DNA of 64,000 nt from Kiritimatiellia bacterium (GCA_045589455.1 JAZNPC010000066.1:127227-191226), one strand, 5' to 3'; positions 11,933 to 64,000 are shown, counted from the first letter of the stretch. The notes: generated from the letters alone by a model not told the origin. A program made the numbers and translations.

Positions 11933-11993
11933 TTATTGTTGTATTACCATGCGTAATTTTGTTATATTAAATGCTATAAAAAGGAGTATGGTC

Positions 11994-27100: not shown

Positions 27101-28419
27101 TAGGGTCTTCTTCTAATGTTTATGCTTGGAATGATTCCTTTGGTATTATTAACTGTGGATCGGCTCACGGATATGGTTCATATGGCCCAGTGCCTAATCA
27201 CTTTGCCCCTAAAGCATTCTATTCGCGCGGTGGTGGTATAAATATTAATAATCAGAATAATGGAGATTGGGCAGCTAAGGGAATTCTAGATTCTATCTAT
27301 GCTTCTGAGCAACTTGTTCTTGAGGATGGTTTATTGTGCGCAAATTCAGAACCAACAGATGCGGCTAATTATCCAACAAATTCTCTATTATTTGCAGAAG
27401 TAAGCAATCCAGACGGAAAAGGCGTTTTTGCTGTTAATTTCAGGCATATTAGAGAGTCAAGCAACCAATCTACTGTTACTAATGGTGTTTCAAAATATAA
27501 GGGAAGAGTTCAAATTGGAAACTTCCAAGATATAGCAATTGGTGAAGGCTCTTCAGAAAATGCAAAAATTGTCCCTTGGATAGTAAATGCTATTGGTGGT
27601 TCACAATTTTGGTATTTTGCAAAAGCAGACGAGGATGGATTCTTGCTTCCAGCAGGTTATCCTTCAACAGAAAACCTAAGAAATTTCGCTTCAACTGCCA
27701 ATGCATACTGCGTAAATGGAAACTCCTTGAATCTATTGCAAGATAAGACTGTTAATTCTCTAGTTCTAAAGGGGCTTACTGGAGATAGGTCAACATTGGG
27801 TGAGGGTATGACTGCAACAATTACCTCTGGTGGTCTAATCTTTACTTCTGATATTTCTCATATTGATTCAGAAGAGGTTTATAATGCTGGAACACGAGGT
27901 AATCTAGTATTCCCTAATCGAGCATTTATCTTCGCAGGTATAAAGTCAACAACTTCACCATCAGAGATTTGGGCAAATATTTCTGCACCAAAGGGTATGA
28001 CAATTACTTACCCTGGAACATTGTTGCTTGGTGGTGATCAGACTGGTATTGATAAGGAAATACATATTTCCAATAGTAATCTAATTCTTGGTAAGAATAC
28101 AACTCCAGCAGTGATTGATGTGCCAATTTCTATGCACTCTGGTGGTTCTTCATTAACTATTGCTAATGCAGGTTCTTTGTGCAAGCAGGAGATTGTATGT
28201 ACAACAGCAACTCGCCAGTTCCCTAAAATCAATGTTGCCTTTGATGGAACAGAAAATTGCCAAAAGCTAACAATTGATGGCGAAACTCTACCAAGAGGTA
28301 CTTATGGTGCAACAGGCTCAGGAGCTGAATTTATCAACGATAAAATATTTACTGGTGTAGGTATATTGAAGGTCTTGAGCGACGATTTACTACAGCCTAC
28401 AATAATTTTTATTAGGTAA
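24154..28419 (+). CDS. Giant secreted protein (1421 aa) with an N-terminal PA14-like domain and repeated beta-sandwich-like domains.
   Basis: Signal peptide MKRAQNIFLAFFALFLMAQEANA. The PA14-like motif is GTYTFWGRYDDGGAVLINGDVIYTH...AGWYDFRGYVWDWSGG. The body is long and rich in S, T, G and N. C-terminal tail ...LLQPTIIFIR. Confidence 0.85.
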   Translation: MKRAQNIFLAFFALFLMAQEANATVYRPGFQQFRYSCAKDKEADLTVTYDSITDANKRDITATTLMASINGTGSVVNPLTGKTWNWSDNTTFGYESQIWLEPGTYTFWGRYDDGGAVLINGDVIYTHGAKSGYNESPASGDFVVTKAGWYDFRGYVWDWSGGKNPMGEAKSAIQMKKDGGAWIINMEGVPARYATGVEYLEIQKAVASETEGCFDVTVAATFPSGTTAQVWALATNGNVGHLPKDKWSSSSEAQSITSDGTTQILTFTVDASALGNPYVVAYSENVYTDILTEESAANPDFNLEKAYSSLVPVATAAAGYIIIDEVKYLDVDIFTNIDSFGVGATGVEGTIEVSTSVDFSNPITVELGSLAFGASLHTISGLTTNVTYNIRLVMVNSEGATTYTDPVEFTTLNPQPAIITSTLYTTEYNVFKPTVILESYGAGSTTATVSYQVSTTEDFSDIVIEQEVPNAMLGQGVEIKINKLDDGSPLVGASTYYFRPVVVNEWGLVTYGDTIKAQLADTIITYNGFGYNKTDAGLELVAYVTYVLEDAIFDATLEINNVVVKEWNGINAATTLAYTIENDSLKSQNTAKLTFDITTNNGQTVEVLEEEFIKNQQRVMAFSSIAELDNNDASYTIAKIGDVIKMPKLIDDNENYVAGDTRVARLLEDGNSIEIIGHGFTKITKRIVDPASGNITLERGLVVVPPTPAGEGNVYMLIIPQADRYWDTTHWKNLTNPEAGGYPSKKDDIAMIFMYGTKSMFVNTDITVGQIWIGVEGGNFYLRGQQGGEGAKTVTFERSDKEMPLFRISGLEQTDGVVLPWALPHFYIQPSLKTPLIFDCSNDLLFDAGCPFDPLSRDDVTGKSLQRVSLETGFILNIPKGARVVFDGTNAGNRDGDTQRGNVTFRFSSNAFVGEGTVDYNGPSSVCFTPDASDFNGVFDLTHMNKYDSFGIGDRGGGVYMLFWEGSQPGANASQRLEGHIGLGSSSNVYAWNDSFGIINCGSAHGYGSYGPVPNHFAPKAFYSRGGGININNQNNGDWAAKGILDSIYASEQLVLEDGLLCANSEPTDAANYPTNSLLFAEVSNPDGKGVFAVNFRHIRESSNQSTVTNGVSKYKGRVQIGNFQDIAIGEGSSENAKIVPWIVNAIGGSQFWYFAKADEDGFLLPAGYPSTENLRNFASTANAYCVNGNSLNLLQDKTVNSLVLKGLTGDRSTLGEGMTATITSGGLIFTSDISHIDSEEVYNAGTRGNLVFPNRAFIFAGIKSTTSPSEIWANISAPKGMTITYPGTLLLGGDQTGIDKEIHISNSNLILGKNTTPAVIDVPISMHSGGSSLTIANAGSLCKQEIVCTTATRQFPKINVAFDGTENCQKLTIDGETLPRGTYGATGSGAEFINDKIFTGVGILKVLSDDLLQPTIIFIR

Positions 28420-28583
28420 GTAGTAGGTAAGAGTAAAGTTTATAATTAAAGCAGCTATGGACACATAAAGTCTGTAGCTGCTTTTATATTTAATATCGTA
28501 ATTATGCTAAAATATGTAGCGAAATGAGTTTTTTCATAAAAAATGCTTGCGTTTTTACCCAGTTATATGAGAAAATTAACGCC

Positions 28584-34423: not shown

Positions 34424-34460
34424 ATTTTGATGCACCAAGATGGTTGTGCGCAAATAGTAT

Positions 34461-34813
34461 GGAGAAGCGACTTCTAGTCGCTTTGCGTCTCTGCGTCCCT
34501 TCGGCGTCACGTGCATCATGCTCGCTCTGCGCTTCTTGTTGATTGTTTTTTCCCGCTCCTTGTCTCAAAAGCCTTGGTGGGTCGTACACATTAGCGCTTG
34601 GCAGTTGCCTTATTGCTTCGCCAGATTTAGCAATAATTAAGGCAACAACAAGCGGTAATGTGCGCGTCAGCGCCCCATCACCACACCCATCACACCAGCC
34701 CAGCGCCCTCCGCGTCCTTTGCGTCTCTGCGTCCCTTCGGCGTCACGTTCACCATGCTGTTGATTGTTGGCTGTTGTATCGTTTTCCCGCTCCTCGTCTT
34801 AAAAGCCTTGTTG
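34461..34813. repeat. GC-rich intergenic repeat block: two copies of a ~90-nt unit (ctttgcgtctctgcgtcccttcggcgtcacgt...gttgattgtt...ttcccgctcct...aaaagccttg) plus the tggagaagcgacttctagtcgctttgcgt module.
   Basis: Copy 1 is ~34481-34570 and copy 2 is ~34717-34813. The tggagaagcgacttctagtcgctttgcgt module recurs exactly at 53636-53664. Confidence 0.7.
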
Positions 34814-36061: not shown

Positions 36062-36627
36062 AAAATCTCCTTTTTTTGATAAAACTATATATAAAACGTT
36101 TTAAAATTTCAAGTAAAATTTACGATGCAATCGTAAATTTTACTAAAATTGTGTGCGCTTATTCCTTAATTCAGTAGTTAGATTTTAGTGCGCGTTAAAG
36201 CCACAATGAGCATTGCGAGACCTTAAAATTGCAATAGTAATTTTTCTCGCGCTAGACCAAATGATGGAGGAGCAGATGTTTTGCATTGCAAAACATAGGT
36301 GAGAAGTAAGAAGTAAAAGGTAAGAGATTCGGTATGTGCGTGCGCGGGCGGCTAACGCATGCGCACCGCTCTCGCCTACGGGAAGATTGGAAGCTGGGGA
36401 GGATGGGAGGTTTGTCTGATGGGTGGTGTGGTTGTGGCGCTAGCGCGTACATTTGTGTCGTGTGCGCTGTAAAATGTGCGCCAGCCAAGCTGCACAAAAA
36501 TGTAATTATTTCTATCATTATAGGTTTAAATGGTTTGCATAAATTATATCGGTATTTTGTTTGACTGATTTTGTTAAATAGTTGTAAAATATCAATAAAT
36601 TTAAATAAAGTTATTTTGGAGATTCTT

Positions 36628-37476
36628 ATGAAAAAATATTTTTCGTTGACGATATTGTTGTTTGCTTGTCTTGCTGTAACATCTTATGCAGATAGTGAAG
36701 GTAAGGTGAATATAGAAATTATTTATGGTGTTGAATGGGAATATACATCCTGTGATAATGGTGTAGAGATTTTAGGTGCAAATGCAGAGGGAGATGTTAA
36801 AATACCTTCTAAATTAGGAAATCTTCCTGTAACATCCATCGGCGAAGAAGCGTTTTCTGATTGTGGTAGTTTAACCAGTATTGTAATTCCAGATAGTGTA
36901 ACATCCATCGGCGACGATGCGTTTTCTGGCTGTTATAGTTTAACCAGCATTGTAATTCCATCAAGTGTAACATCCATCGGCGACGGTGCGTTTTCTTACT
37001 GTGGTAGTTTAACCAGCATAGAAGTTGCAAAAGGCAATCGAAATTATGTTTCAGTAGATAATGTATTGTTCTCTAAAGACATGAAAAAGATTATTTGTTG
37101 CTCTAAGAACAAAGCATCATATTCTATTCCTGAAGGTGTAACATCCATCGGCGACCATGCGTTTTCTGTCTGTGATAGTTTAACCAGCATTGTAATTCCA
37201 GATAGTGTAACAACCTTCGGCGAAGAAGCGTTTTCTGGCTGTTATCGTTTAACCAGCATTGTAATTCCATCAAGTGTAACATCCATCGGCGAAGAAGCGT
37301 TTTATGGCTGTCGGAGTTTAACCAGCATTGTAATTCCAGATAGTGTAACATCCATCGGCGATAGGGCGTTTTCTGGCTGTGAGAGTTTAACCAGCATAAT
37401 ACTACCAAGAAAATTTTCAGAAGACCGAGAGCGACTTGCTAATGAAAATTATGGAGAAATCATACCGAACGACTAA
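36628..37476 (+). CDS. Small BspA-type LRR (LRR_5) surface protein.
   Basis: Signal peptide MKKYFSLTILLFACLAVTSYA, then ~8 repeats of IP(D/S)SVTSIG(D/E)xAFSGCxSLTSIVIP. The start at 36628 is preceded by TTGGAG. Confidence 0.8.
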   Translation: MKKYFSLTILLFACLAVTSYADSEGKVNIEIIYGVEWEYTSCDNGVEILGANAEGDVKIPSKLGNLPVTSIGEEAFSDCGSLTSIVIPDSVTSIGDDAFSGCYSLTSIVIPSSVTSIGDGAFSYCGSLTSIEVAKGNRNYVSVDNVLFSKDMKKIICCSKNKASYSIPEGVTSIGDHAFSVCDSLTSIVIPDSVTTFGEEAFSGCYRLTSIVIPSSVTSIGEEAFYGCRSLTSIVIPDSVTSIGDRAFSGCESLTSIILPRKFSEDRERLANENYGEIIPND

Positions 37477-45999: not shown

Positions 46000-46680
46000 A
46001 AAAGTGCACATTTCAAGAACACGGACACACGGATGGGGTTTTTGGGGGTGCTTGTGTGATGGCTAGGCGTGCGAGGATTGGCGTGCGGGGCACGCGAGTG
46101 CGCTCTCGCGCAGGAACAGGATTGGCAGGATTATGCAGGATGGTCATGATTGCTTGGGTGTGTGCGTAGCGCACGACACTAGCGCTTGACGTTGGACATG
46201 GTCTTGCTCTCGTTGTCGCAAGGCCAACTTACAAGCGCTAGTGTGGGGGCAACCCATGTGCTTGTGTGGTGTTTCTTTTGACAGGATTAACTGGATTTGT
46301 GCGGATGCTGGGCTGGTGTGCTATAGGATTCAAGACACTAGCGCTTGTTGTTGCCTTAATTATTGCAAAATCTATGAAGCAATAAGGCACCATCCAAGCG
46401 CCAGTGTTTTGGATGCACCAAGCTTGGTTGTGCGCTGCGCCGCGTGCGGCGCAGTTTGAGCGTAGCGTATGTGCAAAACTCTCTCGCACCAGAGCGGGCA
46501 CTGAGCACTGCGAGACACAAAATGCTCTTGCATTTTTGGCTCGCGCCAGACAAAACGATGGAGGAGCCCTGTCACTATTGTTCTCGGCACCTCCATCAAC
46601 CGAAAGGAGTGGCGCGCGGCTTACCACACTGCCAATTGTGGCAAAACTCTTAAGACTGCTATTAATGAACTAGCATCGTA
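46000..46680. repeat. GC-rich non-coding repeat block of the 'CACGGAT / GGCTAGGCGTGCGAGGAT / GTGTGGGGGCAACCCATGTGCTTGTGTG' family.
   Basis: It shares a 26-nt exact match and several other modules with 52128..52440. It is GC-rich in an AT-rich genome. All ORFs in it are short, overlapping and of low complexity. Confidence 0.7.
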
Positions 46681-52127: not shown

Positions 52128-52440
52128 ACACGGATGAGCACGGATGGGTGGTTTTCAAGAACACGGATGGACACGGATAGTCACGGATGGGGGCTAGGGT
52201 TGCTTGTGTGGTGGTGTAAAGTGTGGGTTCAAGAACACGGATGGACGCGGATGGACACGGATAGTCACGGATGGGGGCTAGGGTTGCTTGTGTGGGGGCA
52301 ACCCATGTGCTTGTGTGTTGGCTAGGCGTGCGAGGATCAAGAACACGGATGGACACGGATAGTCACGGATGGGTGATGGGGATGCTTGGGTTTATGGGTA
52401 GTTTAATGTCGTGGCATGGTAGGCTCAGCCCTATCATGAA
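52128..52440. repeat. GC-rich repeat block, tandem (c/a)cacggat(a/g)g units plus modules shared with 46000..46680.
   Basis: cacggatgg is repeated more than 12 times. It carries the same gtgtgggggcaacccatgtgcttgtgtg and ggctaggcgtgcgaggat modules as the block 6 kb upstream, in the same orientation. Confidence 0.75.
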
Positions 52441-52478
52441 ATTTTGAATGGTTTTGTAAAAGAGGATGTAAGAATAAG

Positions 52479-53504: not shown

Positions 53505-54420
53505 ATCCCTCATGCAGAGTGGATGCACATACACGGATGTGAGATTTGTCGCTAGCGCTCAAGCCTTCGGCGAAACACGGAGCACACGTAGTGTGATTTT
53601 CCTGAGAACGGAGGCACGGAGAGGATGCTAGTGGTATGGAGAAGCGACTTCTAGTCGCTTTGCGTGCGGTAGCACGCTTTAAAAGTGCGAAAAAGGGACG
53701 CAGAGACGCAAAGGACGCAGAGGACGCAGAGGACGCAGAGGACGCAGGGCTTGCGTGATGGCTTGTATGGTGGTATCGATGATAACACTACCGCTTGTCG
53801 GTGCCTTGTTTTGCTCCTGTTGTTGCAAAGGCAACTTCCAAGCGCTAGTGTGTTCGCCCACAAGAATGCAAAGACGCGGAGCTTATGCACGTGATGGCTA
53901 AAAGTGCGAAGAAGAGACGTTAGACGCGAGACGGTTAAACGACGTTAGACGTGAAAATGGAGAAAAACCAATTAACTCTACCTAAATTCTTCATTTTTCA
54001 TTCTTCATTCTTCATTTATTATAATGCGTTGCCTCCGCATCTTAATAGGCTTCTAGGCGAGGACACTAGTGGATGAGATTTGCCAAATTGCTTCGATAGA
54101 TAAAGCAATAGCCAAGGCAAAGTTCATTCCGCTAGTGTATTTGTTGCGTCACGGCTCTGCGACCTCTGCGACCTCCGCGTCTCTGCGTCCCTTTGGCGTC
54201 ACGTGCATCACGGTACACGGATTTGACGCTCCCGCTGTAGCCTTCGGCGAAACGCGGAGAATAAAGAGAACGGAGACACGGAGGGGTTCTGGGGGTTATT
54301 GTTGATGGTTGCTAGCATAGTTCTCCCTTGTCCTCCGTGAAAACCACACTATGTGTGTCCGTGTTAGGCGAAAGCAATATGTGCGAAAAAGGGACGCAGA
54401 AACGCTAAGAACGCTGAGTG
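53505..54420. repeat. GC-rich modular repeat cluster upstream of the giant BspA gene.
   Basis: Module C (gccttcggcgaaacacggagcacacgtagtgtgattttcctgagaacggag) recurs at ~59738-59800. A gacgcagag tandem run (53690-53750) is the reverse complement of the ctctgcgtc module at 34481-34500. The aattaactctacctaaattcttcatt...tattataatgc module recurs at ~60156-60230. A ~170-nt module (54231-54400) recurs at 59938-60110. Confidence 0.75.
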
Positions 54421-54953
54421 AGCATGGCTTGCGGTAAGCGAAATCCGGATAAATACCGATTGGCTTTCCGGGGTCTCATAAAGAGTGCGTCATGTGCGTG
54501 GCGTAAGTGTCTTTATCCATGCAAATTGCGTTATACAATTTTACCATATTATTAGGGTTTAAATCATTGATTTAGAGCGAAAAAAATCATATAATATGGG
54601 CATATCTTTTAAATAGAATGATTTGTTTTTCTTTTTTAGAGATATATTACATAGGTATGCAATGAAAGTTACATACTGTTGAACTAATCGCTTTTGAATG
54701 TAAAAGATTCAAAAGGAATAGTGTTAGTACGCAAGCTTGCGTATTTAGCTTTGATTGAAAATCGCCAATTTCCCATCTAACTAAGCTGAATATGTAAGGT
54801 GCGCTACGTGGTATTTTCCCGCGTGGCGTGTCTTCTTTTCATGTTTAGTTAGAGGCGTTTGGCGATGCCCCAATCAGAATATGAAAATTATGGCACGCCA
54901 CGTCTTTTTTGTGCAAGACGCTTCGTGTCCAATAAATGCACAAAAGGTATTAT

Positions 54954-57900
54954 ATGAAAAAGTTATTGTTGGGTTTTATAGTTGCAGTTACTGCGATTCC
55001 ATTGTTTTCAGACATTGCCATTATTGATGGTATGATGTGTCACTATCAAGTAAATGATGGCCAAGCTAGTATTTATAATGGTGGTTGGAGTTCTGCAATA
55101 CCATCTACAACTAAAGGGTCAATAACAATCCCATCAACCATTGGTGGTTATCCAGTAACTAGCATTGGAGATAGGGCGTTTTCTGGTTGCAGTGGTCTTA
55201 CGAGCATAACGATACCCGATAGCGTGACGAGCATCGGAAGTTGGGCGTTTGAGGATTGCAGTGGTCTTACGAGCATAACGATACCCGATAGCGTGACGAG
55301 CATTAGGGTTGGTGCGTTTTCTGGTTGCAATAACATTAAATCTGTGACTGTGGGTCAGTATATATGTAGCAAAGGATTAGATGTATTTCCATCCTATCAA
55401 TCAATAATAAATGTTGTTATTTCGGATGGTGTAACGAGCATCGAAAGTTGGGCGTATGAGGATTGCAGTGGTCTTACGAGCATAACGATACCCGACAGCG
55501 TGACGAGCATTGGATCTGGTGCGTTTTCGGGTTGCAGTGATTTACTATATGATACCACAACAATACAAGGTGTGAAGCTTGTTGATGATTGGGTTGTTGG
55601 TTATACGGATTCTTGTCCATCAGTTCTTGATTTAACAGATATAAGAGGAATTGGAGATCGCGCGTTTTCAGGTTGCATAGGACTTACAAGTATTACAATT
55701 CCAGATAGCGTGACTAGCATTGGCAATTCTGCGTTTGTGAATTGCAGTGGTCTTACGAGCATAACGATACCAGATAGCGTAACGAGCATTGGCTCTTCTG
55801 CGTTCCAAAATTGCAGTGGTCTCACCAGCATAACGATTCCAGATAGCGTAACTAGCATTGGCTCTTCTGCGTTCCAAAATTGCAGTGGTCTCACGAGCAT
55901 AACGATACCAGATAGCGTGACGAATATTGGCTCTTCTGCGTTCCAAAATTGCAGTGGTCTCACAAGCATAACGATTCCAGATAGCGTAACTAGCATTGGC
56001 TATTCTGCGTTTTGTTATTGCGATGGTCTAACAAGCATAACAATACCGAATAGCGTGACGAGCATCGGAAGTTGGGCGTTTTCAGGTTGCATAGGACTTA
56101 CAAGTATTACAATTCCAGATAGCGTGACGAGCATTGGCAATTCTGCGTTTTCTTATTGCGATGGTCTAACAAGCATAACAATACCGAATAGTGTGACGAG
56201 CATTGGCTCTTCTGCGTTCCAAAATTGCAGTGGTCTCACAAGCATAACGATTCCAGATAGCGTGACGAGCATTGGAGATAATGCGTTTGATGGGTGCAGT
56301 GGTCTCACGAGCATAACGATTCCAGATAGCGTGACGAGCATTGGATGGGATGCGTTTGTAGATTGCAGTGGCCTTACCAATTTTATAGTAGATTCCAATA
56401 ATCCCAACTATAAGTCAGTTAATAGTTTGCTACTTTCCAAAGATGGTAAATCTCTTATTGCGGGTATAAATGGTAATGTCGTAATTCCTAATAGCGTGAC
56501 TAGTATTGGCAATAGTGCGTTTGAGGATTGCAGTGGTCTCACGAGCATAACGATACCCGATAGCGTGACGAGCATTGGAGATAATGCGTTTGATGGGTGC
56601 AGTGGTCTCACGAGCATAACAATTCCCGATGGCGTGACTAGTATTGGCAATAGTGCGTTTGAGGATTGCAGTGGCCTTACGAGCGTCACGATACCTAATG
56701 GCGTGACGAGCATTGGCGATTATGCGTTTGAAGGTTGCAATGATTTTATATATGATACCACAACAATACAAGGTGTGGAGCTTGTTGATGGTTGGGTTGT
56801 TGGTTATACGGATTCTTGTCCATCAGTTCTTGATTTAACAGGTGTAAGAGGAATTGCCGATACTGCGTTTTATGATTGCAGTGGTCTAACAAGCATAACT
56901 ATACCCAACAGCGTGACGAGCATTGGGTATAGTGTGTTTACTGGTTGCAGTGGCCTTACGAGCATAACAATACCTGATAGCGTGACGAGCATTGGCGATT
57001 ATGCGTTTGAAGGTTGCAGTGGTCTTACGAGCATAACGATACCCGATAGCGTGACGAGCATTGGAGATGGTGCGTTTGGTGGTTGCAGTGGTCTTACGAG
57101 CATAACAATCCCAGATAGCGTGACGAGCATTGGAGATGATGCGTTTGGTGGTTGCAGTGGTCTAACAAGCATAACAATCCCAGATAGCGTGACGAGCATT
57201 GGAGATGATGCGTTTAGGGGTTGCAGTGGTCTAACGAGCGTGACGATCCCCGATAGCGTTACGAGCATTGGATGGGATGCGTTTTGGGGGTGTGATAATA
57301 TCAAGACTGTAACTGTAGGTCAGTATATATGCAGTAATGGTATATTTTCGTCGCATCAATCAATCACTAATGTTGTGATTTTAGATGGCGTAACTAGCAT
57401 TGGAGATGAGGCGTTTAGGGGTTGCAGTGGTCTAACAAGCATAACAATCCCAGATAGCGTGACGAGCATTGGGGATGAGGCGTTTGCTTGGTGCGATGGT
57501 CTTACGAGCGTGACGATCCCCGATAGTGTTACGAGCATTGGCAGATGGGCGTTTGAGTATTGCGATGGTCTTACGAGCTTGACGATAGGAAATAGCGTAA
57601 CAAGCATTGGAAGAGGTGCGTTTGAGTATTGCTATGGTCTTACAAGCATTACCATTCCTAATAGCATAACAAACATGTACATATATGAATTTGAGCATTG
57701 CGATAAAATCAAGAATTTAATAATAGGGCAATATATATGTACAAATGACATTTATCGTATGTTTCCTGAGTCATTTTCAATAATAGAAAATATTGAAATT
57801 TTAGATGGTGTAACGAGTATAGGTGATTGGACATTTCAAGGATGTTCTAGCATTACAAGTATAACAATTCCTGATAGCGTAACGAGCATTGGTAGAGCTC

Positions 57901-59591
57901 CGTTTTATCGAAGTGGTCTGACATCATTTTCCGTATCACCAGGCAATTTAAACTATAAATCAGAAAATGGGCTTTTATTGACTAAAGACGGAACAACACT
58001 TATCGCAGGAATAAATGGGATTGTTGTGATTCCCGATGGTGTGACGAATATTGGCGATTATGCGTTTTATGGTTGCACTGGTCTAACAAGTATAACGATA
58101 CCGAATAGCGTGACGAGCATTGGCGATTATGCGTTTCGTTATTGCAGTGGTCTTACGAGCATAACAATACCCGATAGCGTGACGAGCATTGGAAGTAGGG
58201 CGTTTGAAGGTTGCAATGATTTTCTATATGATACCACAACAATACAAGGAGTGAAACTAGTTGATGGATGGGTTGTTGGTCATACGGATTCTTGTCCATC
58301 AGTTCTTGATTTAGCAGGTGTAAGAGGAATTGGCGGTAGTGCGTTTTCTGGTTGCAGTGGCCTTACGAGCATAACGATACCCGATAGCGTGACGAGCATT
58401 GGAGATAATGCGTTTGATGGTTGCAGTAGTCTTACAAGCATAACGATACCCGATAGCGTGACGAGCATTGGAGATGGGGCGTTTTCTGGTAGCCGTAGTC
58501 TTACCCTGTTTATAGTAGATTCCAATAATCCAAGCTATAAGTCTGTTAATGGATTATTACTTTCAAAAGATGGTAAAACTCTTATTGCTGGAGTAAAAGG
58601 TGATGTCACTATACCGAATAGCGTTACGAGCATTGGCTCTTCTGCGTTTGGAGGTTGCAGTGGTCTAACAAGCGTAATAATTCCAGATAGCGTTACGAGC
58701 ATTGGAGATAATGCGTTTTTTGATTGCTATGGACTTACGAGCATAACCATTCCAGATAGCGTGACGAGCATTGGAAGTTATGCGTTTTATTGGTGCAGGG
58801 GTCTCACAAGCATAACGATTCCAGATAGCGTAACGAGCATTGGAAGTTATGCGTTTTATTGGTGCTATAACTTAAAATCTGCAATTTTCCTTGGGGATGC
58901 ACCAAGGAATATCGGAGATTATATTTTTGATGATTGTGCCGATGATTTTACAATCAAGGTTAAGAAAGGCACTAAGGGCTGGAATGGCGATCCAAATTCA
59001 ACGGAATTACCAGAAACTTGGTATGGCTATCCTATTGAATATGCAACTGAGGATGATTTATACCCAGTACTTGATGCTAATGCAACAGCTGAGGATGTAG
59101 CAAATGCTTTGTCTGGCTCAGTGGATGAAAACCTAGCTAAAAACATTACAAGCGTTGAGATGTACAATAACTATCGTGAATGGGCATTGTCTGTAAAGGC
59201 TCCTACAGGTGATGATGCAGCTGGCGTTGAGGCTGTTATGGCATCAACTACAGCTTGGATGTCCTTCGCTCTTGACCAGTCACGGCTTATTGCTAATGAG
59301 CCAGTTGAGGGTGATGTTGCTATCGCATCATTGGATGCAGTTGCAGCTGATGGCTCCTTTGAGTTTACTGTAAATATCAATCAAATTGATGTTGGTGATG
59401 GGGCAGTGGAAGAAAATCTGAAAAAGCTCTTCAAAATTGAAGGTGCAACATCACTCGGAAATGATGCGAACTTCTCAAGCGAAAATGTTGAAATTGAGCT
59501 TGCAGAGCCAGTTAATGGTGATGTTAAATTCAAGATATTACCTAAGAATTCGCCAGATTCCTTCTTTATAAGAGCAAAACTCTTGAAATAA
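54954..59591 (+). CDS. Giant BspA-type LRR (LRR_5) surface protein (~1545 aa).
   Basis: Signal peptide MKKLLLGFIVAVTAIPLFS; the start at 54954 has a better ribosome-binding site than 54936. It has ~50 copies of IPDSVTSIGxxAFxGCSGLTSITIP. Three copies of a non-LRR insert (DFxYDTTTIQGVxLVDGWVVGxTDSCPSVLDL) and two of VTVGQYICS are present. The C-terminal ~200 aa are non-repetitive. Confidence 0.9.
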   Translation: MKKLLLGFIVAVTAIPLFSDIAIIDGMMCHYQVNDGQASIYNGGWSSAIPSTTKGSITIPSTIGGYPVTSIGDRAFSGCSGLTSITIPDSVTSIGSWAFEDCSGLTSITIPDSVTSIRVGAFSGCNNIKSVTVGQYICSKGLDVFPSYQSIINVVISDGVTSIESWAYEDCSGLTSITIPDSVTSIGSGAFSGCSDLLYDTTTIQGVKLVDDWVVGYTDSCPSVLDLTDIRGIGDRAFSGCIGLTSITIPDSVTSIGNSAFVNCSGLTSITIPDSVTSIGSSAFQNCSGLTSITIPDSVTSIGSSAFQNCSGLTSITIPDSVTNIGSSAFQNCSGLTSITIPDSVTSIGYSAFCYCDGLTSITIPNSVTSIGSWAFSGCIGLTSITIPDSVTSIGNSAFSYCDGLTSITIPNSVTSIGSSAFQNCSGLTSITIPDSVTSIGDNAFDGCSGLTSITIPDSVTSIGWDAFVDCSGLTNFIVDSNNPNYKSVNSLLLSKDGKSLIAGINGNVVIPNSVTSIGNSAFEDCSGLTSITIPDSVTSIGDNAFDGCSGLTSITIPDGVTSIGNSAFEDCSGLTSVTIPNGVTSIGDYAFEGCNDFIYDTTTIQGVELVDGWVVGYTDSCPSVLDLTGVRGIADTAFYDCSGLTSITIPNSVTSIGYSVFTGCSGLTSITIPDSVTSIGDYAFEGCSGLTSITIPDSVTSIGDGAFGGCSGLTSITIPDSVTSIGDDAFGGCSGLTSITIPDSVTSIGDDAFRGCSGLTSVTIPDSVTSIGWDAFWGCDNIKTVTVGQYICSNGIFSSHQSITNVVILDGVTSIGDEAFRGCSGLTSITIPDSVTSIGDEAFAWCDGLTSVTIPDSVTSIGRWAFEYCDGLTSLTIGNSVTSIGRGAFEYCYGLTSITIPNSITNMYIYEFEHCDKIKNLIIGQYICTNDIYRMFPESFSIIENIEILDGVTSIGDWTFQGCSSITSITIPDSVTSIGRAPFYRSGLTSFSVSPGNLNYKSENGLLLTKDGTTLIAGINGIVVIPDGVTNIGDYAFYGCTGLTSITIPNSVTSIGDYAFRYCSGLTSITIPDSVTSIGSRAFEGCNDFLYDTTTIQGVKLVDGWVVGHTDSCPSVLDLAGVRGIGGSAFSGCSGLTSITIPDSVTSIGDNAFDGCSSLTSITIPDSVTSIGDGAFSGSRSLTLFIVDSNNPSYKSVNGLLLSKDGKTLIAGVKGDVTIPNSVTSIGSSAFGGCSGLTSVIIPDSVTSIGDNAFFDCYGLTSITIPDSVTSIGSYAFYWCRGLTSITIPDSVTSIGSYAFYWCYNLKSAIFLGDAPRNIGDYIFDDCADDFTIKVKKGTKGWNGDPNSTELPETWYGYPIEYATEDDLYPVLDANATAEDVANALSGSVDENLAKNITSVEMYNNYREWALSVKAPTGDDAAGVEAVMASTTAWMSFALDQSRLIANEPVEGDVAIASLDAVAADGSFEFTVNINQIDVGDGAVEENLKKLFKIEGATSLGNDANFSSENVEIELAEPVNGDVKFKILPKNSPDSFFIRAKLLK

Positions 59592-59612
59592 TAGGGGATA
59601 ACTTTGTGGTTA

Positions 59613-59644
59613 GGCGTGCAGACAAGAAATTGTTTGCACGCCTA
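59613..59644 (+). terminator. Hairpin 20 nt after the BspA stop (aggcgtgcagacaagaaattgtttgcacgcct), possible terminator.
   Basis: Perfect 9-bp stem with a weak T-tract (aattgttt). Confidence 0.4.
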
Positions 59645-59649
59645 ATTGT

Positions 59650-60300
59650 TTGCGGTGGAGAGAATTGCCCTCAGTGTTTCTGCGTCCCACCAGTATCATG
59701 GCACACAAATTTGTCGCTCTCGCTCTAGCCTTCGGCGAAACACGGAGCACACGTAGTGTGATTTTCCTGAGAACGGAGACACGGAGAGTATTCTTGGGTT
59801 ATTATTGCTTGCACTTTCCCTCCTTATCTCCGTACTCCGTGTTAAGCGAAAGCAATGAGTGTAATAATTAGCATAGTACTCCTTTGTCCTCCGTACTCCG
59901 TGTTAAGCGTAAGCAATAAGTGTAACGATTTAAACGCTTGCGCTGTGGCCTTCGGCGAAACACGGAGGTAAAAGAGAACGGAGACACGGAGGGGTTCTGC
60001 GGTTATTGTTGATGGTTGCTAGCATAATGCTACCTTGTCCTCCGTGAAAACCACACTATGTGTGTCCGTGTTAGGCGTAAGCAATGAGTGCGAAGAAGGG
60101 ATGCTGCGACGCGGAGGACGCAGCGGACGAGATTAGACGCGATAGCAAAAAACAATTAACTCTACCTAAATTCTTCATTCTTCACTCTTCATTCTTCATT
60201 TATTATAATGCATCGCCTCCGCGTCTCTGCGTCCCTTTGGCGTCACGTGCATCACGATCCGCGTCACGTGCATCACACTAGCAGATGGGTTGCAGAGCAC
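59650..60300. repeat. GC-rich modular repeat cluster downstream of the giant BspA gene, sharing modules in direct orientation with 53505..54420.
   Basis: The ~170-nt module at 59938-60110 is ~90% identical to 54231-54400. Module C, the aattaactctacc...tattataatgc module and the gcgtctctgcgtccctttggcgtcacgtgcatcac module are all shared with the upstream cluster. Confidence 0.75.
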
Positions 60301-60325
60301 TAGCAACAAATATCAACGAGGGGGA

Positions 60326-62419
60326 TTACTTATCCGTGAATGTGCAGCTAACAGTTTTATTGCCTGTTAGTGCTTCACTGCGAGCGTCTGGTTGAGAGAA
60401 GCCTGCGTAGATTGTGAAGGTGTTGGAGCGGATAGCACGCTCGCCATTGTCATCAACTGTTGTGAATGAACGTGGGGCAAGGTCAATCTCTACCTGTTTT
60501 TCTTCTCCAGCAGCAAGGCTTACACGCTTAAATGCACAAAGCCTATGGTTAAGAACATCACAGCCACTCTTTTCATCCTTAATGTAGATTTGAAGAACAT
60601 CCTCTGTGGCAAAGTCGCCTTCATTTTTAACTGTAACAGTGAGCTTTGCATTTGATGTATTGCCAGAAGCAGTGATAGCTGTTGCCTTGCAATTTCCGTA
60701 TGTTAAACCATAGCCAAAAGGATAGAGTGGTTTGCCTTCAAAGTACCTATAGGTCCTATTCTTCAATGAATAATCATGGAAGTCTGGTAAATCTTCATCA
60801 CTATTATAGAATGTAATTGGAAGCTTTCCTGAAGGGGATACTTCACCAAACAAAATGTCAGCAATGTCCTTGCCAGCTCTTGCTCCAGGGTACCATGCTT
60901 GAATAATTGCTCTTGCTTTTTCGTCGTGAATGCGCATGTCCATTGCACTACCAGTCATATTGATAACAACGACTGGCTTGCCACAAGCATATACAGCATC
61001 TGTTAGTTGGCGTTGAGGTTCTGGGTATTGAAGAGATGTTTTATCTCCAATGCCAGCATCACCTTCCTCACCTTCAATTTTTTCATCAAGTCCTAATACG
61101 AGAAATACAATATCTGATTCATCGCAAACAGCTTGTGCTTCAGCTAATTGATCAGAAATTCCCTTCTTGGATAGACCTTGAAGTCTATCCCACCAAACGT
61201 GGCAACCCTCTGAATAGAATACACGAGCAGAGTCACCAACATAGTCTTGGATGCCTTCGAGAACAGTGGTGTATCTAGATGATGTGCCATGGTAGTTACC
61301 CATTAGAGCAATGCGGCTATTTGCATTTGGACCAATTACACCAATCTTCTTTATTGAATCCTTCTTAAGAGGTAGAATGCCATCATTCTTAAGCATAACG
61401 ATGCACTCTTTTGTAGCACGTTTTGCAACATCTAGGTGTTCCTTGCATTCAACTACATCAAAAGGTATTTCGTCTAATTCTGTTTTATCAAACAAACCAA
61501 GAAGGAATCTTGTTGTGAATAGGCGAATGCATGATTGATCAATATACTTCTCATCAATTAAGCCTTGTGCATGAGCATCAAGAATTCTTTGATATGTGCA
61601 GCCGCAATTTACATCACAGCCCTTTTCAAGAGCTAGCTTTACAGATTGCTCAGGTGTTTCTGTGATTTTGTGGGTCTCGTGGAAGTTTTTGATTGCCCAG
61701 CAATCAGAAACATAATGACCTTGGAAGCCCCATTTGCCACGTAGGTATTCATTCATAAGAACCTCGTGTGCGCAGCATGGCTCTCCATTAGTTCTATTAT
61801 AAGCTCCCATAACAGCTTCAACATTTGCTTCTGTTACACATGCTTCAAATGCTGGAAGATATGTTTCTTCCATATCCTTTTTGGAGGCAATGGCATTGAA
61901 GTGATGTCTTTCTGGCTCTGGACCAGAATGCACGGCAAAGTGCTTTGCACAAGCAGCAGCCTTAAGGTATTCGCCATCGCCTTGTACACCCTTTACAAAT
62001 TGCACACCAAGGCGTGAGGTTAGGTATGGGTCTTCGCCATAAGTTTCTTGACCACGACCCCAGCGAGGATCTCTAAAAATATTTACATTTGGTGACCAGA
62101 AGGTTAGACCTTTATAAATATCTCTATCACCACGAGTGCTTTGCATATTGTATTTAGCACGACCCTCTATTGCAATAATCTCGCCAATTTTAAATAGTAG
62201 GTCTTCATCAAAGGTTGCAGCAAGAGCAATAGATTGAGGGAACATTGTGGCAGTTCCTGCACGAGCTACACCATGAAGAGCTTCATTCCACCAATTGTAT
62301 TCAGGGATACCAAGTCTTTCAATAGCAGGTGCATCAAATCTTAATTGTGATGCTTTTTCTTCGAGTGTCATTTTTGCAACAAGCTCGGTTGCACGTTTTT
62401 TTGCTTCTTGTCTATTCAT
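60326..62419 (-). CDS. Glycoside hydrolase family 3 (beta-glucosidase / beta-xylosidase type) with a C-terminal Fn3-like domain.
   Basis: GH3 N-terminal domain (EKASQL, NWWNEALHG, KHFAVHSG), the catalytic Asp region (GYVVSDWGA-like HYVSDCWAI), a GH3 C-terminal domain and an Fn3-like tail. Confidence 0.9.
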   Translation of the reverse strand: MNRQEAKKRATELVAKMTLEEKASQLRFDAPAIERLGIPEYNWWNEALHGVARAGTATMFPQSIALAATFDEDLLFKIGEIIAIEGRAKYNMQSTRGDRDIYKGLTFWSPNVNIFRDPRWGRGQETYGEDPYLTSRLGVQFVKGVQGDGEYLKAAACAKHFAVHSGPEPERHHFNAIASKKDMEETYLPAFEACVTEANVEAVMGAYNRTNGEPCCAHEVLMNEYLRGKWGFQGHYVSDCWAIKNFHETHKITETPEQSVKLALEKGCDVNCGCTYQRILDAHAQGLIDEKYIDQSCIRLFTTRFLLGLFDKTELDEIPFDVVECKEHLDVAKRATKECIVMLKNDGILPLKKDSIKKIGVIGPNANSRIALMGNYHGTSSRYTTVLEGIQDYVGDSARVFYSEGCHVWWDRLQGLSKKGISDQLAEAQAVCDESDIVFLVLGLDEKIEGEEGDAGIGDKTSLQYPEPQRQLTDAVYACGKPVVVINMTGSAMDMRIHDEKARAIIQAWYPGARAGKDIADILFGEVSPSGKLPITFYNSDEDLPDFHDYSLKNRTYRYFEGKPLYPFGYGLTYGNCKATAITASGNTSNAKLTVTVKNEGDFATEDVLQIYIKDEKSGCDVLNHRLCAFKRVSLAAGEEKQVEIDLAPRSFTTVDDNGERAIRSNTFTIYAGFSQPDARSEALTGNKTVSCTFTDK

Positions 62420-62470
62420 GTGTAGATTCTTTTGTTTTAAGTTATAATGTTGAAGCTTGAATTTAAGAGA

Positions 62471-64000
62471 TTAAATTTGTTTTTTTGATCTATTAAAAAA
62501 GATAATTATTCCTGTAATAATAGCCCAAATTACAAGCATGACACAGCTTACGATAAATACCTTAACCCAACCAATCGTAAAGACTAATGTTAAAGCAAAT
62601 GCTGTCCATAAACCTCCACCCATAATTGGCTCGTGAATTAACTGTTTATAACCAAAGGTTGCTACTGCATCTGTTTTATTCTCAGGATCTACCGTGCGGA
62701 GTAGCATCAAGCCTGTAGCTGTAACACCTGTTGCTTGGCCAAATTCAGCAATTGCTTTTTCAAACCAATTTTTCTTAAATAACTTTGGAGATACAAAAAT
62801 TACCATTAGGATACAGAAAATAGCACCAGTTGCAACCATAATGATAAGAGGGATGAAATTATCTGCAACAACACTTAATTGAATTGTGGCAATAGCAGCA
62901 ACCACTAGAAAATCAAGTGAAGCACCAGAAAGACGTTGCATTTGTTCCTTGTTGATTAGATTGCCAATATTAACTTTATTAAGCAATATCTGAAGTATAA
63001 CGCCACCAATCATACACAAAGGGAAGAGAGGAAAACCACTAAAGAAACGTATTTTAGCTTCTGGGAAGAAATAAATTTCTCCAAATTGTAAGCCTTTTAA
63101 AATTCCAAAACCAATTAGAATTGAGATACCAATTAATGAGATGTGGAATGCAAGTGAGTCAATGGAATCAGGGAATACAGTTTGTAAGCCTGCAGAGGGG
63201 CGTTGGTCTGACTTGTATACACCGATTCGCTCCATAAAACTGCGATCGTTGTAGGTTCTGATTTCTTTAACATGTCCCTTTTTTAGTGCCCAGTTGACCA
63301 TAGCCATTCCTGCAATAATACCGATTATCATGCCAAATGTTGCAACTGTAAATCCTAGGGCTACACCATCCTCCCAATTGAAATTTTGAAACACCTCAGT
63401 TACACCGCCAACAGTGCCATGTCCACCTTGAAATCCAATTTCCAATAGGTTGCCAAAAGCAGGGTTAAGGTTGAACATAGGTAAAAAAATGAAGCCGGCT
63501 AATCCAAGACCTATTACATATTGACCCCAAGCGAGGAGTTGTCCCATACAAATTTGTGGGAATGCAGTTTTAAAAACAGTTTTAAGTTTTGGAGTAACTG
63601 TCCCAAGAAATAGGGTAGCAAAGATTACATTAATCATAAAACCAGGAATTTTCTTTGTTCCTGCAATGATTTCATCGTACGTGATTGGATTTTTGTTTGA
63701 AGCTCCAATTTTATTCTTTGATTTATTTGCAATGCTTTCAGATTCGTTACTAGTGTTCGACGTTTTTACTTCCGGTTCAATTTCTTTAGCTGGTTCACTA
63801 ACCTTCTCAGTAATTGAGCTGGCTTCTATTACCTCGTTGACGATGTCATCATTGTTTGATTCGTTGGCGATATAATATCCCCATATAGAAAACAAGATAA
63901 GTCCAAGAATTCCTCCAATTACAGAACTAGGTAGATATAACTTTTGGAGCAATGGTATTGTTGTTCGTAATATTTTTCCTAATATAAGTAGTAGGGAGAG
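62471..64000 (-). CDS. gltS: Sodium/glutamate symporter GltS-family transporter; 5' end runs past the window edge.
   Basis: GltS-like N-terminus (LLILGKILRTTIPLLQKLYLPSSVIGG), the GltS signature GFQGGHGTVGG and the C-terminal GQATGVTATGLMLLRTV. The frame is open up to position 64000; the ORF-track start at 63952 is a TTG. A ~70-aa hydrophilic insert follows TM1. Confidence 0.6.
   Translation of the reverse strand, partial: LSLLLILGKILRTTIPLLQKLYLPSSVIGGILGLILFSIWGYYIANESNNDDIVNEVIEASSITEKVSEPAKEIEPEVKTSNTSNESESIANKSKNKIGASNKNPITYDEIIAGTKKIPGFMINVIFATLFLGTVTPKLKTVFKTAFPQICMGQLLAWGQYVIGLGLAGFIFLPMFNLNPAFGNLLEIGFQGGHGTVGGVTEVFQNFNWEDGVALGFTVATFGMIIGIIAGMAMVNWALKKGHVKEIRTYNDRSFMERIGVYKSDQRPSAGLQTVFPDSIDSLAFHISLIGISILIGFGILKGLQFGEIYFFPEAKIRFFSGFPLFPLCMIGGVILQILLNKVNIGNLINKEQMQRLSGASLDFLVVAAIATIQLSVVADNFIPLIIMVATGAIFCILMVIFVSPKLFKKNWFEKAIAEFGQATGVTATGLMLLRTVDPENKTDAVATFGYKQLIHEPIMGGGLWTAFALTLVFTIGWVKVFIVSCVMLVIWAIITGIIIFFNRSKKQI

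Follow-up and report, generated by a model that had tools for sequence, protein, structure and literature searches.

We find that the 4.6-kb BspA gene of this Kiritimatiellia bacterium lies, with a probability that we put at about 80%, between two arrays of lineage-specific, high-copy, short GC-rich non-coding interspersed repeats resembling REP, BIME and NIME sequences. Within the 64,000-nucleotide stretch of DNA that was analysed (hereafter the window), the gene (54936-59591) is bracketed by four direct-repeat pairs of 48-198 nt and 86-94% identity. All four had been described in the original prediction and were recovered in direct orientation with slightly shifted limits; the pair given there as a module of about 170 nt at about 90% identity is real, but measures 198 nt at 86%:

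54217-54414 and 59925-60121 (+/+): repeat pair 1, 198 nt, 86% identity
53544-53637 and 59709-59802 (+/+): repeat pair 2, 94 nt, 90% identity
53963-54042 and 60147-60226 (+/+): repeat pair 3, 80 nt, 92.5% identity
54172-54219 and 60216-60263 (+/+): repeat pair 4, 48 nt, 94% identity

The longest exact runs common to both flanks are of 52, 45, 41, 29, 27, 26 and 26 nt. Chance is excluded for these repeats, since the 20-mer GCCTTCGGCGAAACACGGAG (CGl, allowing up to three mismatches) and a 30-mer core of the right arm GAr each occur four times in the window against 0.00 expected. The earlier description of the modules as mosaic and GC-rich also holds, with island GC contents of 0.48-0.56 compared to 0.34 in the remaining intergenic DNA and 0.40 in coding DNA.

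At least two non-coding families, the CG element and the GA element, make up the arrays on both sides of BspA, with HP, T1 and PAL hairpins interleaved. Alignment of 35 copies defines the CG element as a hairpin unit about 145-160 nt long, while the GA element spans 170-530 nt and possesses inverted arms of about 45 nt, made of runs of the 9-nt word GACGCAGAG, around an AT-rich, promoter-like TTCTTCA core. HP hairpins are 67-75 nt in length and the PAL hairpin 19 nt. Units are nested or joined head to tail, so that a whole island is a composite palindrome and the two islands share modules in different order, the same units having been concatenated differently on each side. In the module annotation, a recurring module order is common to about 90 loci. 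The upstream island is composed as follows:

53525-54435 (+): upstream repeat island, 911 nt, GC 0.50, all parts repeated in related genomes
53531-53637 (+): left half of a CG element, 90% identical to 59709-59802, with the leader ACACGGATG (module annotation)
53563-53582 (+): left arm CGl of this half element
53583-53601 (+): its PAL hairpin, CACACGTAGTGTG
53607-53624 (+): its ACGGAG words
53638-53680 (+): T1a module, two small GC hairpins (AGCGACT...AGTCGCT and GCGTGC...GCACGC), DNA fold -15.9 kcal/mol, z = -5.4
53681-54212 (+): GA element, long form, copied elsewhere (e.g. L026, 85% over 633 nt)
53682-53747 (+): its inverted arm GAl, tandem GGACGCAGA x5.9
53785-53851 (+): HP hairpin in the long GA element
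about 53916-53950 (+): tandem GACGTTAGAC words in the long GA element
53963-54030 (+): TTCTTCA module of the long GA element, ATTCTTC x4.4
53995-54022 (+): promoter-like TTTTCA-16-TATTAT inside the TTCTTCA module
54064-54137 (+): inverted HP hairpin in the long GA element
54150-54212 (+): inverted arm GAr, end of the long GA element
54213-54380 (+): complete CG element with PAL in the right arm, aligning with 34 other CG units and 86% identical to 59925-60121
54378-54435 (+): partial GAl arm (AGTGCGAAAAAGGGACGCAGAAACGC...) ending the island, 89% identical to 53685-53722 and 82% to 60088-60125

BLAST coverage against related loci amounts to 13-93 copies over 53525-54435 and is 0 from 54440. The island folds as a single nested palindrome (RNA dG -367 vs -298 +/- 7 for shuffles, z = -9.4; DNA fold z = -8.75), in which the left-half CG element pairs with 54309-54372. 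The inverted arms of the long GA element are 90% complementary over 40 nt (53692-53731 and 54155-54194), and its module order recurs in four related loci (L046, L028, L026 and L052); T1a is found again at 34461 and in many related loci. The arms of the HP hairpins covary, with double changes in 7 of 20 pairs and a score that none of 500 shuffles reached. Of five ORFs within the islands, the two that were searched against Pfam (78 and 73 aa) gave no match, and no flipped GA core, with its inverted arms and promoter-like sequence, was present among the copies examined.

Between the arrays lies the gene itself, which contains internal 69-nt repeats and encodes a protein with a signal-peptide-like N-terminus, preceded by a unique 5' region and followed by the downstream island:

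54436-54935 (+): unique, AT-rich BspA 5' region (GC 0.37), coverage 0, i.e. not repeated
54567-54595 (+): promoter-like TTGATT-17-TATAAT in the 5' region
54796-54834 (+): hairpin and T-run in the 5' region
54936-59591 (+): BspA-type LRR surface-protein gene, 1551 aa (Pfam LRR_5, E = 0)
59609-59646 (+): perfect 16-bp hairpin 3' of the BspA stop codon, DNA fold -16.3 kcal/mol, z = -6.7
59703-60265 (+): downstream repeat island, 563 nt, GC 0.48, between the convergent BspA and GH3 genes
59706-59858 (+): complete CG element with PAL in the left arm, its left 94 nt 90% identical to 53544-53637
59869-59924 (+): solo right arm (CGr) of a CG element, 90% identical to 59828-59869
59925-60087 (+): complete CG element with PAL in the right arm, 86% identical to 54217-54414 and 89.7% to L029
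60086-60263 (+): GA element, short form, arms pairing over 29 bp, same module order in L029
60088-60129 (+): GAl of the short GA element
60147-60211 (+): TTCTTCA module of the short GA element, with promoter-like TTCACT-17-TATAAT at 60181-60209
60209-60263 (+): GAr of the short GA element

The hairpin at 59609-59646 is probably a terminator, and does not belong to the repeat family. The DNA fold of the downstream island has a z-score of -4.46.

Three further sites in the window (34461-34813, 46000-46680 and 52128-52440) had been proposed to carry related modules. The first two do share modules with the BspA flanks, whereas the third proved to be a related but different array:

34450-34760 (+): island with T1a, GAr, HP and GAr, all common to the BspA flanks, between convergent HAD-hydrolase and DUF4143 genes
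46010-46440 (+): island with ACGGA and CAGGATT word arrays and two HP hairpins, in common with the BspA flanks, between divergent NifU and 711-aa genes
52128-52400 (+): G-rich array of three tandem units of about 90 nt with ACACGGATGG words

The G-rich array has no BLAST-level similarity to the BspA flanks and no hairpin (fold z = +1.35); it is missing from the relative L001, and CAGGATT words occupy its place in L003. Within the window, the CG element is confined to the BspA locus.

The expectation that the modules recur beyond BspA is borne out above all in related genomes, where about 600 kb from 4-5 herbivore-gut MAGs, given as Kiritimatiellae or Verrucomicrobia in their record titles, contain at least 120 copies. 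One CG-element 20-mer is found in at least 90 stretches, with about 120 exact copies, and the matches listed lie nearly all in the MAGs JAFUOX01, CALDQE01, JAGCJJ01 and JAFPBK01, often at contig ends; a JAFUOX01 locus (L034) is 98.3% identical to window positions 27945-28485 (541 nt). No matches to the modules were detected in 740 kb of unrelated metagenome control contigs, in viral contigs, or in plasmid and phage collections. For two window proteins, however, the best named homologues carry the labels Clostridia or Butyrivibrio. Of island bases, 77% fall outside ORFs, against 18% of background bases, and islands are present in every gene-orientation context, including divergent promoter regions, with modules in both orientations. 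The median distance of islands is 83 nt to a gene 3' end, vs 194 nt to a start codon (p = 1e-10). Because the related loci were chosen for containing the repeat, densities and neighbour statistics are biased.

The content of the arrays also differs between close relatives. Within the 98%-identical pair, the island in L034 is missing at window position 28486, and L015 and L075 have flanks that are 97% identical around differing modules. The island 3' of GH3 is common to L174, where it contains different words, and is missing in L175 to L177; window 60065-60325 is syntenic in L174 (86.6% nucleotide identity), whose contig stops there.

Our best reading is that these repeats are an undescribed family in the REP/BIME/NIME class of intergenic mosaic repeats. 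NIME arrays of Neisseria are intergenic, combine many short repeat families in mosaic order with patterned GC, have dRS3 inverted repeats separating RS elements, can keep syntenic positions between relatives while their content varies, are linked to surface-protein genes and have been proposed as recombination substrates (PMC1797815). The arrays described here similarly combine many families, with patterned GC and syntenic positions of variable content (L174; L015 vs L075). As regards the association with surface-protein genes and the elevated exchange or divergence of flanking genes that go with NIMEs, islands are enriched beside LRR genes in a repeat-selected sample, and one island-bounded gene is highly identical between MAGs. 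However, the two share no sequence relationship; in place of 20-bp inverted repeats separating spacers, the units here are long hairpins whose arms consist of word repeats, and the 20-bp dRS3 repeat ATTCCCNNNNNNNNGGGAAT has no match in the window at up to one mismatch. Moreover, the host belongs to an uncultured herbivore-gut lineage, and no recombinase or phage link was found.

Several other known systems share part of this organisation. BOX elements of Streptococcus pneumoniae (boxA-boxB(n)-boxC) and Correia elements of Neisseria are likewise modular, hairpin-forming non-coding repeats with variable numbers of internal modules and some promoter-like copies (here the TTCTTCA core), yet they are unrelated in sequence to the repeats described here, no duplication of a TA target was observed, and nesting and arrays are larger here. 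Like integron attC sites, the units are imperfect inverted repeats that can form hairpins and that flank a gene in direct orientation, and the right arm GTTAGGC or GTTAAGC fits GTTRRRY; unlike integron cassettes, which have one attC per ORF in a single orientation next to an IntI gene, they form multi-unit arrays without intervening ORFs, in both orientations and scattered among housekeeping genes. Of the 38 window ORFs of at least 150 aa, 37 were examined and none encodes an integrase. The inverted arms and promoter-like core of the GA element invite comparison with invertons, promoter-bearing segments between inverted repeats that exist in both orientations in a population and lie near an invertase; the window encodes no recombinase.

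It had been suggested that the BspA locus has a cassette-like organisation. In the dedicated form of this reading, for which NIME arrays offer a precedent (PMC1797815), the flanking repeats would exist to excise, amplify or replace the antigen gene by homologous or site-specific recombination. We regard such a dedicated arrangement as unlikely, although part of the suggestion stands. Exact direct matches of 41-52 nt occur on both sides of BspA, and would in principle suffice for the recombination that the direct repeats were said to permit. LRR gene ends adjoin islands in 12 of 19 cases in related genomes, compared with 144 of 746 for the remaining gene ends (Fisher p = 5e-5, odds ratio about 7; range 7-21, p = 5e-5 to 2e-6), in a repeat-selected sample whose paralogues share flanks. 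This excess may stem from 3' flanks duplicated together with their genes among paralogues, and from insertions being better tolerated beside monocistronic accessory genes. Module and gene maps place islands on both sides of four LRR genes (in the window, L076, L022 and L066), or two by a stricter 300-nt test. The last 1 kb or so of BspA, with about 215 nt beyond it that include the first downstream module, is 88-93% identical to other loci (L009, L076 and L015), among them a surface-protein gene of non-LRR type. Two MAGs carry an FGE-sulfatase gene whose limits coincide exactly with islands and whose copies are 97% identical, while their other aligned segments are 71-86% identical and the outer neighbours differ, and this sequence comparison appears to provide the single clear case of a cassette-like pattern with high inter-MAG identity. 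Against these points, 112 of 126 island regions (89%) have no LRR neighbour, of the window's five LRR_5 genes four are without islands, and no integrase or recombinase gene lies near the BspA locus. Nor did the search for alternative BspA structures in relatives yield an excision, amplification or allele-replacement product of the locus among the contigs examined: those that enter a BspA-flank island all end inside it (L003 and L174), and a more distant relative (L175) has no island at that site.

REP sequences, known from enterobacteria and Pseudomonas, are imperfect palindromes of 20-40 nt, often arranged as inverted doublets, with a cognate single-copy RAYT gene flanked by the same repeats. 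The arrays resemble REP, BIME and REPIN sequences as extragenic palindromic units in mosaic clusters with other motifs at gene 3' ends, at high copy and restricted to a lineage, and a RAYT-like Y1 protein is encoded in the window. One proposal, which we consider doubtful, is that the units are non-autonomous transposable elements of REPIN or MITE type that are mobilised in trans, possibly by this Y1 (HUH) transposase (10585-11655). As in MITEs, the units are small hairpin or inverted-arm elements without coding capacity, and their presence differs within the 98%-identical pair noted above. The window protein has an HUH motif, its best NCBIfam match is the REP-associated tyrosine transposase (50.5 bits, below the cut-off of 80 bits), some of its homologues are named RayT in their sources, and its gene occurs once in the window and is absent from about 625 kb of related loci. 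However, this gene is flanked by unrelated small hairpins rather than by CG or GA elements, as it is in 95-97% homologues (L178 and L179). The units, at 67-530 nt with arms of short tandem words, are far longer than classical REPs, only PAL (19 nt) and two T1 hairpins falling in the REP size range. Isolated copies lack target-site duplications, and no autonomous insertion sequence with the same termini was found, there being no ORF-bearing element between GAl and GAr arms in the roughly 625 kb of related loci. Copies share a median of about 87% identity with their closest counterpart, and none at 95% or more were seen within one genome. Recent transposition has thus left no trace in these data, but young repeats are places where short-read MAGs collapse or break.

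That the modules are instead a structured ncRNA family or cis-regulatory RNA (terminators, stabilisers or protein-titrating GGA-rich RNAs) seems improbable. The strong hairpins, the location of islands near gene 3' ends and the roughly 2:1 sense bias of the CGl arm (35 vs 17) point in this direction, as do the many words containing GGA (ACACGGAUG, CAGGAUU and ACGGAG), which presumably resemble CsrA-type binding motifs. However, the Rfam screen that had been recommended (Rfam 15) returned no match in either BspA-flank island even at E = 1, tRNA-Phe being the one family to reach the gathering threshold anywhere in the window; modules are found in either orientation, and also in divergent promoter regions, the CG-unit alignment is without compensatory changes, and the arms are conserved in sequence, as DNA repeats would be. 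By far the least probable explanation is that the flanks are locus-unique remnants of a single local duplication, or of BspA insertion into one pre-existing sequence: all four CGl 20-mers in the window flank BspA and two complete CG units of its flanks share the window-specific variant GTGAAAACCACAC, but modules recur in the window, hundreds of copies elsewhere rule out a duplication unique to the locus, and copies in other genomes (85-90%; downstream vs L029 89.7%, upstream vs L034 and L026 85-87%) are as close as, or closer than, the two flanks are to each other (86%).

Under the preferred reading of an undescribed REP/BIME/NIME-like family, the arrays would change as units are gained or lost, as word runs slip and as copies recombine, and the direct-repeat bracket of BspA would be a by-product of two same-family arrays lying in the same orientation. 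The repeat arrays are not specific to BspA, and fill many intergenic gaps in this bacterium and its relatives. A role in recombination or gene exchange is nonetheless plausible: with the exact homologies on either side of BspA as substrates, the 6-kb segment could be deleted or duplicated in a RecA-dependent way, or could be replaced by DNA from relatives anchored in them.

The GC-rich repeats on either side of the large BspA-type gene (an upstream island at 53525-54435 and a downstream island at 59703-60265) appear, judging from their sequence, to represent an undescribed family of intergenic repeats of the REP/BIME/NIME class, originating from a poorly studied phylum. The four pairs of modules originally predicted to be shared by the two flanks were all found, in direct orientation and a few bases away from the coordinates first proposed; the long module is present, but its identity is nearer to 86% than to 90%. 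The longest exact runs common to both flanks are 52, 45 and 41 nt, each of two core motifs is found at four places in the window (shuffles predict 0.00), and the GC content of the islands is 0.48-0.56, compared to 0.34 in the remaining intergenic DNA.

Table. The BspA-type gene and the direct repeats around it
54936-59591, forward strand: BspA-type LRR gene, 1551 aa; Pfam LRR_5, "BspA type leucine rich repeat", E = 0
54217-54414 and 59925-60121, direct: repeat pair 1, 198 nt, 86% identical
53544-53637 and 59709-59802, direct: repeat pair 2, 94 nt, 90% identical
53963-54042 and 60147-60226, direct: repeat pair 3, 80 nt, 92.5% identical
54172-54219 and 60216-60263, direct: repeat pair 4, 48 nt, 94% identical

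In translation, the 1551-aa protein has a signal-peptide-like N-terminus. Its gene is preceded by a unique, AT-rich leader region of 500 nt (54436-54935), which includes TTGATT-17-TATAAT at 54567-54595, a good match to a sigma-70-like promoter, and, ~100 nt 5' of the start codon, a 16-bp hairpin with a T-run behind it (54796-54834) that could be a leader or attenuator.

By sorting copies, mapping 14 module motifs in all loci and aligning 35 units, we were able to resolve the mosaic into a few unit types, CG, GA, HP and T1, together with the insert PAL. The CG element is ~145 nt long (~160 nt with an extra PAL hairpin), and consists of the leader ACACGGATG in its 5' part, a left arm formed by GCCTTCGGCGAAACRCGGAG and then words of ACGGAGACACGGAGG, a loop, and the right arm CCTCCGTACTCCGTGTTARGCGWAAGCAA. 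PAL is a 19-nt hairpin, CACACGTAGTGTGRTTTTC, that some CG units carry in one or other arm, at mirror-image positions. The GA element has a left arm of AAAGTGCGAAAAAGGGACGCAGAG followed by more 9-nt GACGCAGAG words, and a complementary right arm ending in CTCTGCGTCCCTTTGGCGTCACGTGCATCAC (40 nt with 90% complementarity in the upstream island); between the arms lies an AT-rich module of ATTCTTC heptamers with a sigma-70-like -35/-10 pair and, in some copies, GACGTTAGAC words as well as one or two HP hairpins. HP is itself a hairpin of 67-75 nt, ACACTAGCGCTTG...CAAGCGCTAGTGT, and T1 a pair of small GC hairpins. The modules had been described as differing in order between the two flanks, which they do, and concatenation of units explains every shared module as well as the order.

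Table. Order of units in the two islands
Upstream island: CG left half with T1; GA element, long form; CG element; partial GA arm
Downstream island: CG element; solo CG right arm; CG element; GA element, short form

The upstream composite recurs in a related locus (L026, 85% identical to window 53710-54324 over 633 nt), and the modules of another (L029) follow the same order as in the downstream island. CG units frequently form head-to-tail arrays, and we infer, rather than observe, how such arrays grow. A G-rich tandem array at 52128-52400, composed of three ~90-nt units that each carry ACACGGATGG three or four times, occupies the interval that separates two co-directional genes.

Since their units are palindromic and partly nested, entire islands fold much better than shuffles. 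As RNA, the upstream island reaches -367 kcal/mol against -298 +/- 7 for shuffles (z = -9.4), with helices in which 53566-53634 pairs with 54309-54372 and 53685-53745 with 54137-54202, continuing inward; as DNA, the upstream island gives z = -8.75 against shuffles and the downstream island z = -4.46. The ACACGGATGG array at 52128-52400 shows no fold (z = +1.35). Across 27 copies of HP, 94% of cells are paired, both-side changes occur in 7 of 20 pairs, and the covariation score is 0.117, compared to 0.050 +/- 0.008 in shuffles, none of 500 attaining it, and a maximum of 0.045 in slid controls. Complementarity of the HP arms is therefore maintained, at the DNA or RNA level. The CG unit yielded no compensatory change in the covariation test, its arms being nearly invariant, hence leaving little to score. 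The suggestion that the modules could be a structured ncRNA family gained nothing from Rfam, in which no module had a match even at E = 1.

Scanning the 20-mer GCCTTCGGCGAAACRCGGAG across one genome per species identified at least 90 stretches, with at least ~120 exact copies. Nearly all copies, among the matches listed, belong to four MAGs, with one more true copy among these matches on a short contig from a "Bacilli" MAG.

Table. MAGs containing nearly all of the GCCTTCGGCGAAACRCGGAG copies among the matches listed
JAFUOX01: RGIG4692, roe deer rectum, titled "Kiritimatiellae bacterium"
JAGCJJ01: yak, titled "Kiritimatiellae bacterium"
JAFPBK01: cattle, titled "Kiritimatiellae bacterium"
CALDQE01: titled "uncultured Verrucomicrobia"

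Single matches in unrelated taxa have no similarity around them, and fit the few chance matches expected. Two window proteins have best named homologues labelled Clostridia or Butyrivibrio, at 65-76%, so that a class assignment taken from MAG titles is provisional. Short matches in related loci cover 53525-54435 at 13-93x, falling to zero coverage at 54440. The repeat modules are absent from 740 kb of distant relatives' contigs that served as a negative control (metagenome contigs found with the 340-aa protein encoded upstream of BspA, relatives at most 63% identical), and have no match in viral contigs or in plasmid or phage records. We found no account of such repeats in this lineage in the Kiritimatiellae and Verrucomicrobia literature on BspA, genomes and repeats. 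Contig ends coincide with many repeat matches, and the closest Logan contigs for neighbouring genes stop inside modules; an assembly artefact was rejected, given that independent MAGs and Logan contigs carry the same modules. CRISPR and coding pseudogenes were also rejected as the identity of the modules.

A census of 126 island regions, drawn from the window and ~625 kb of related loci, places 77% of island bases outside ORFs of at least 100 aa, while such ORFs account for 82% of all bases. Co-directional, convergent and divergent gene contexts all occur, as do both orientations, the strongest bias (that of the CG left arm) being at most 2:1. The median distance to a gene's 3' end is 83 nt, compared to 194 nt to a start codon (p = 1e-10), and several islands are immediately preceded by a stop codon. 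In the window, five islands make up 3.9% of the sequence.

Table. LRR_5 genes in the window
16282-19677: no adjacent island
21526-22791: no adjacent island
22852-24111: no adjacent island
36571-37476: no adjacent island
54936-59591: islands on both sides

An LRR gene is a neighbour in 14 of the 126 island regions. With the window included, 12 of 19 LRR gene ends lie at most 300 nt from an island, compared to 144 of 746 other gene ends (odds ratio 7, p = 4.7e-5), and without the window 11 of 13 compared to 138 of 678 (odds ratio ~21, p = 1.8e-6), counts that come from loci chosen for containing the repeat and in which paralogues share flanks. LRR genes bracketed on both sides number four in the module and gene maps (the window and loci L076, L022 and L066), and two under a stricter 300-nt test.

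The last ~1 kb of the BspA gene and ~215 nt 3' of it, up to the end of the first CG left half, are 88-93% identical in three related loci.

Table. Shared BspA 3' segment
Window 59248-59807
L015:225-702
L076:3222-4349
L009:140-1342

This segment comprises the C-terminal ~115 aa, a terminator hairpin and the beginning of the first CG element; in L015 it supplies the C-terminus of another surface protein, one that is not of LRR type and has Flg_new and CHB_HEX_C domains. The comparison suggests a 3' module that may be common to surface-protein genes. Local duplication, by which the repeats shared across the BspA gene would be copies of one another, was rejected: other genomes contain closer or equal copies of the BspA-flank modules, so that the two flanks are not each other's closest relatives.

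Islands turn over between close relatives. A JAFUOX01 (RGIG4692) locus, L034, matches window 27945-28485 at 98.3% identity as far as a terminator hairpin (~28450-28485). Directly beyond this hairpin L034 has an island at least 640 nt long (L034:1-1182 compared), where the window has unique sequence; very close relatives are thus polymorphic for the presence of an island at this site (window 27945-28500). The 347-nt spacer at 52128-52473 is missing in an 81% relative, in which two genes abut (L001:5440-5446), and in a 94% relative (L003:1-60) CAGGATT words replace CACGGAT words at this site; at 52128-52400 and in relatives, the modules seem to share one template and to vary in the short words that fill it. 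Loci L015 and L075 have flanks 97% identical and different modules. The island 3' of the convergent GH3 gene is common to the window and to a relative, L174 (86.6% nt), in which it has GACGTTAGAC words instead of GACGCAGAG words, extra TTCTTCA copies and no PAL. Consequently, an array can be old and keep its syntenic position even as its content is replaced. In L175 (82% nt), GH3 is followed by purA after 89 nt, with no island, and in L176 and L177 a SIS-domain gene comes next. Islands fall where gene order breaks.

Gene order around the GH3 beta-glucosidase (60326-63952) is different in every relative found (L174, L175, L176), its upstream neighbour being a GH2 gene or Glt symporter (L176 has an upstream LRR_5 gene) and its downstream neighbour purA, a SIS-domain gene or an island; the best named homologues of this window's GH3 are labelled Clostridia or Butyrivibrio, and the MAGs are titled Kiritimatiellae. 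An apparent 60-kb inversion relative to L175 was considered and rejected, as purA and purB of L175 have no nucleotide match in the window. For the 340-aa gene, the closest contigs (94%, 81%) end inside repeats, and a 75% relative has other neighbours and no BspA.

Within a genome, the nearest copy of a CG unit is ~87% identical, equal to the nearest copy in another genome, and two large samples contained no CG-unit copies at least 95% identical within a genome. There is no evidence of recent bursts, whose young copies short-read MAGs would lose. Isolated copies showed no target-site duplications.

As extragenic mosaic repeats, the islands resemble BIMEs, BOX elements and especially NIMEs. However, the dRS3 motif of NIMEs is absent from the window, the units are far longer than REPs, and the cognate arrangement with a REP-associated tyrosine transposase (RAYT) is absent. 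Identity with integron attC sites was rejected, as no integrase was found among 37 of the 38 window ORFs of at least 150 aa. Lacking dRS3, a RAYT arrangement, target duplications and an integrase, and with over-long units, the repeats are not members of the BIME, BOX or NIME families. The window does encode one candidate mobiliser.

Table. Candidate mobiliser
10585-11655, forward strand: RAYT-like Y1/HUH protein, 356 aa, PF01797, adjoining tRNA-Phe

This protein combines a Y1_Tnp domain (E = 3.9e-9) with an HUH motif, its top NCBIfam model is "REP-associated tyrosine transposase" (50.5 bits, under the 80-bit cut-off), and some homologues are named RayT by their sources. It occurs as a single copy in the window, and tblastn detected none in ~625 kb of related loci. 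Its gene flanks (10300-10460, 11660-11935) hold three copies of a GCACGACTAAAYGCACC hairpin and two of AATTTCCCCTAA...TTAGGGGAAATT, and a 34-nt direct repeat occurs twice downstream; CG and GA modules are absent from these flanks, in the window and in 95-97% homologues, where there are other small hairpins. L049, L063 and L091 carry the GCACGACTAAAYGCACC hairpin too, and contig L178 begins inside it. The protein may be regarded as a lead, not a link, to the mobiliser of the units.

NIME arrays have been proposed as homology anchors for exchange, and a 2007 comparative meningococcal genome paper reported that such arrays were not observed outside Neisseria (PMC1797815). Most aligned segments between CALDQE01 and JAFUOX01 are 71-86% identical, and three short accessory genes, all beside islands, stand out.

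Table. Accessory genes that stand out between CALDQE01 and JAFUOX01
L004/L092: Fic/RhuM, 98.3%
L025:2930-4293 and L068:387-1753: FGE-sulfatase-domain gene, 1.36-kb segment, 97.3%
L030/L059: AbiEi, 95.5%

In both genomes, islands mark the exact limits of homology on either side of the FGE-sulfatase gene, and both the content of the bounding islands and the outer neighbours differ between genomes. This pattern would be expected if islands anchor homology, as proposed for NIMEs, in what is one clear case, limited by a sample in which every aligned block contains an island. More broadly, the islands might be recombination hot-spots equivalent to NIMEs, by which flanked genes (BspA-type adhesins, and the accessory FGE-sulfatase, Fic/RhuM and AbiEi genes) would be cassette-swapped among loci and related gut species, perhaps with the help of an enzyme, for example the RAYT-like Y1 protein, that recognises hairpins or word arms; we consider this unlikely. 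The original prediction was partly borne out, regarding the dispersal of the repeats, the feasibility of recombination and the association with LRR genes; the repeats are at most a candidate BspA cassette system.

The repeated ending of contigs inside modules explains why MAGs of this herbivore-gut lineage are fragmented, and the module set can be used to mask or scaffold genomes and to seek structural variants with long reads. If the enrichment beside BspA-type adhesin genes and the island-bounded segments of high inter-MAG identity hold in complete genomes, these islands would provide a second independent case of intergenic mosaic arrays promoting the exchange of surface-protein genes.
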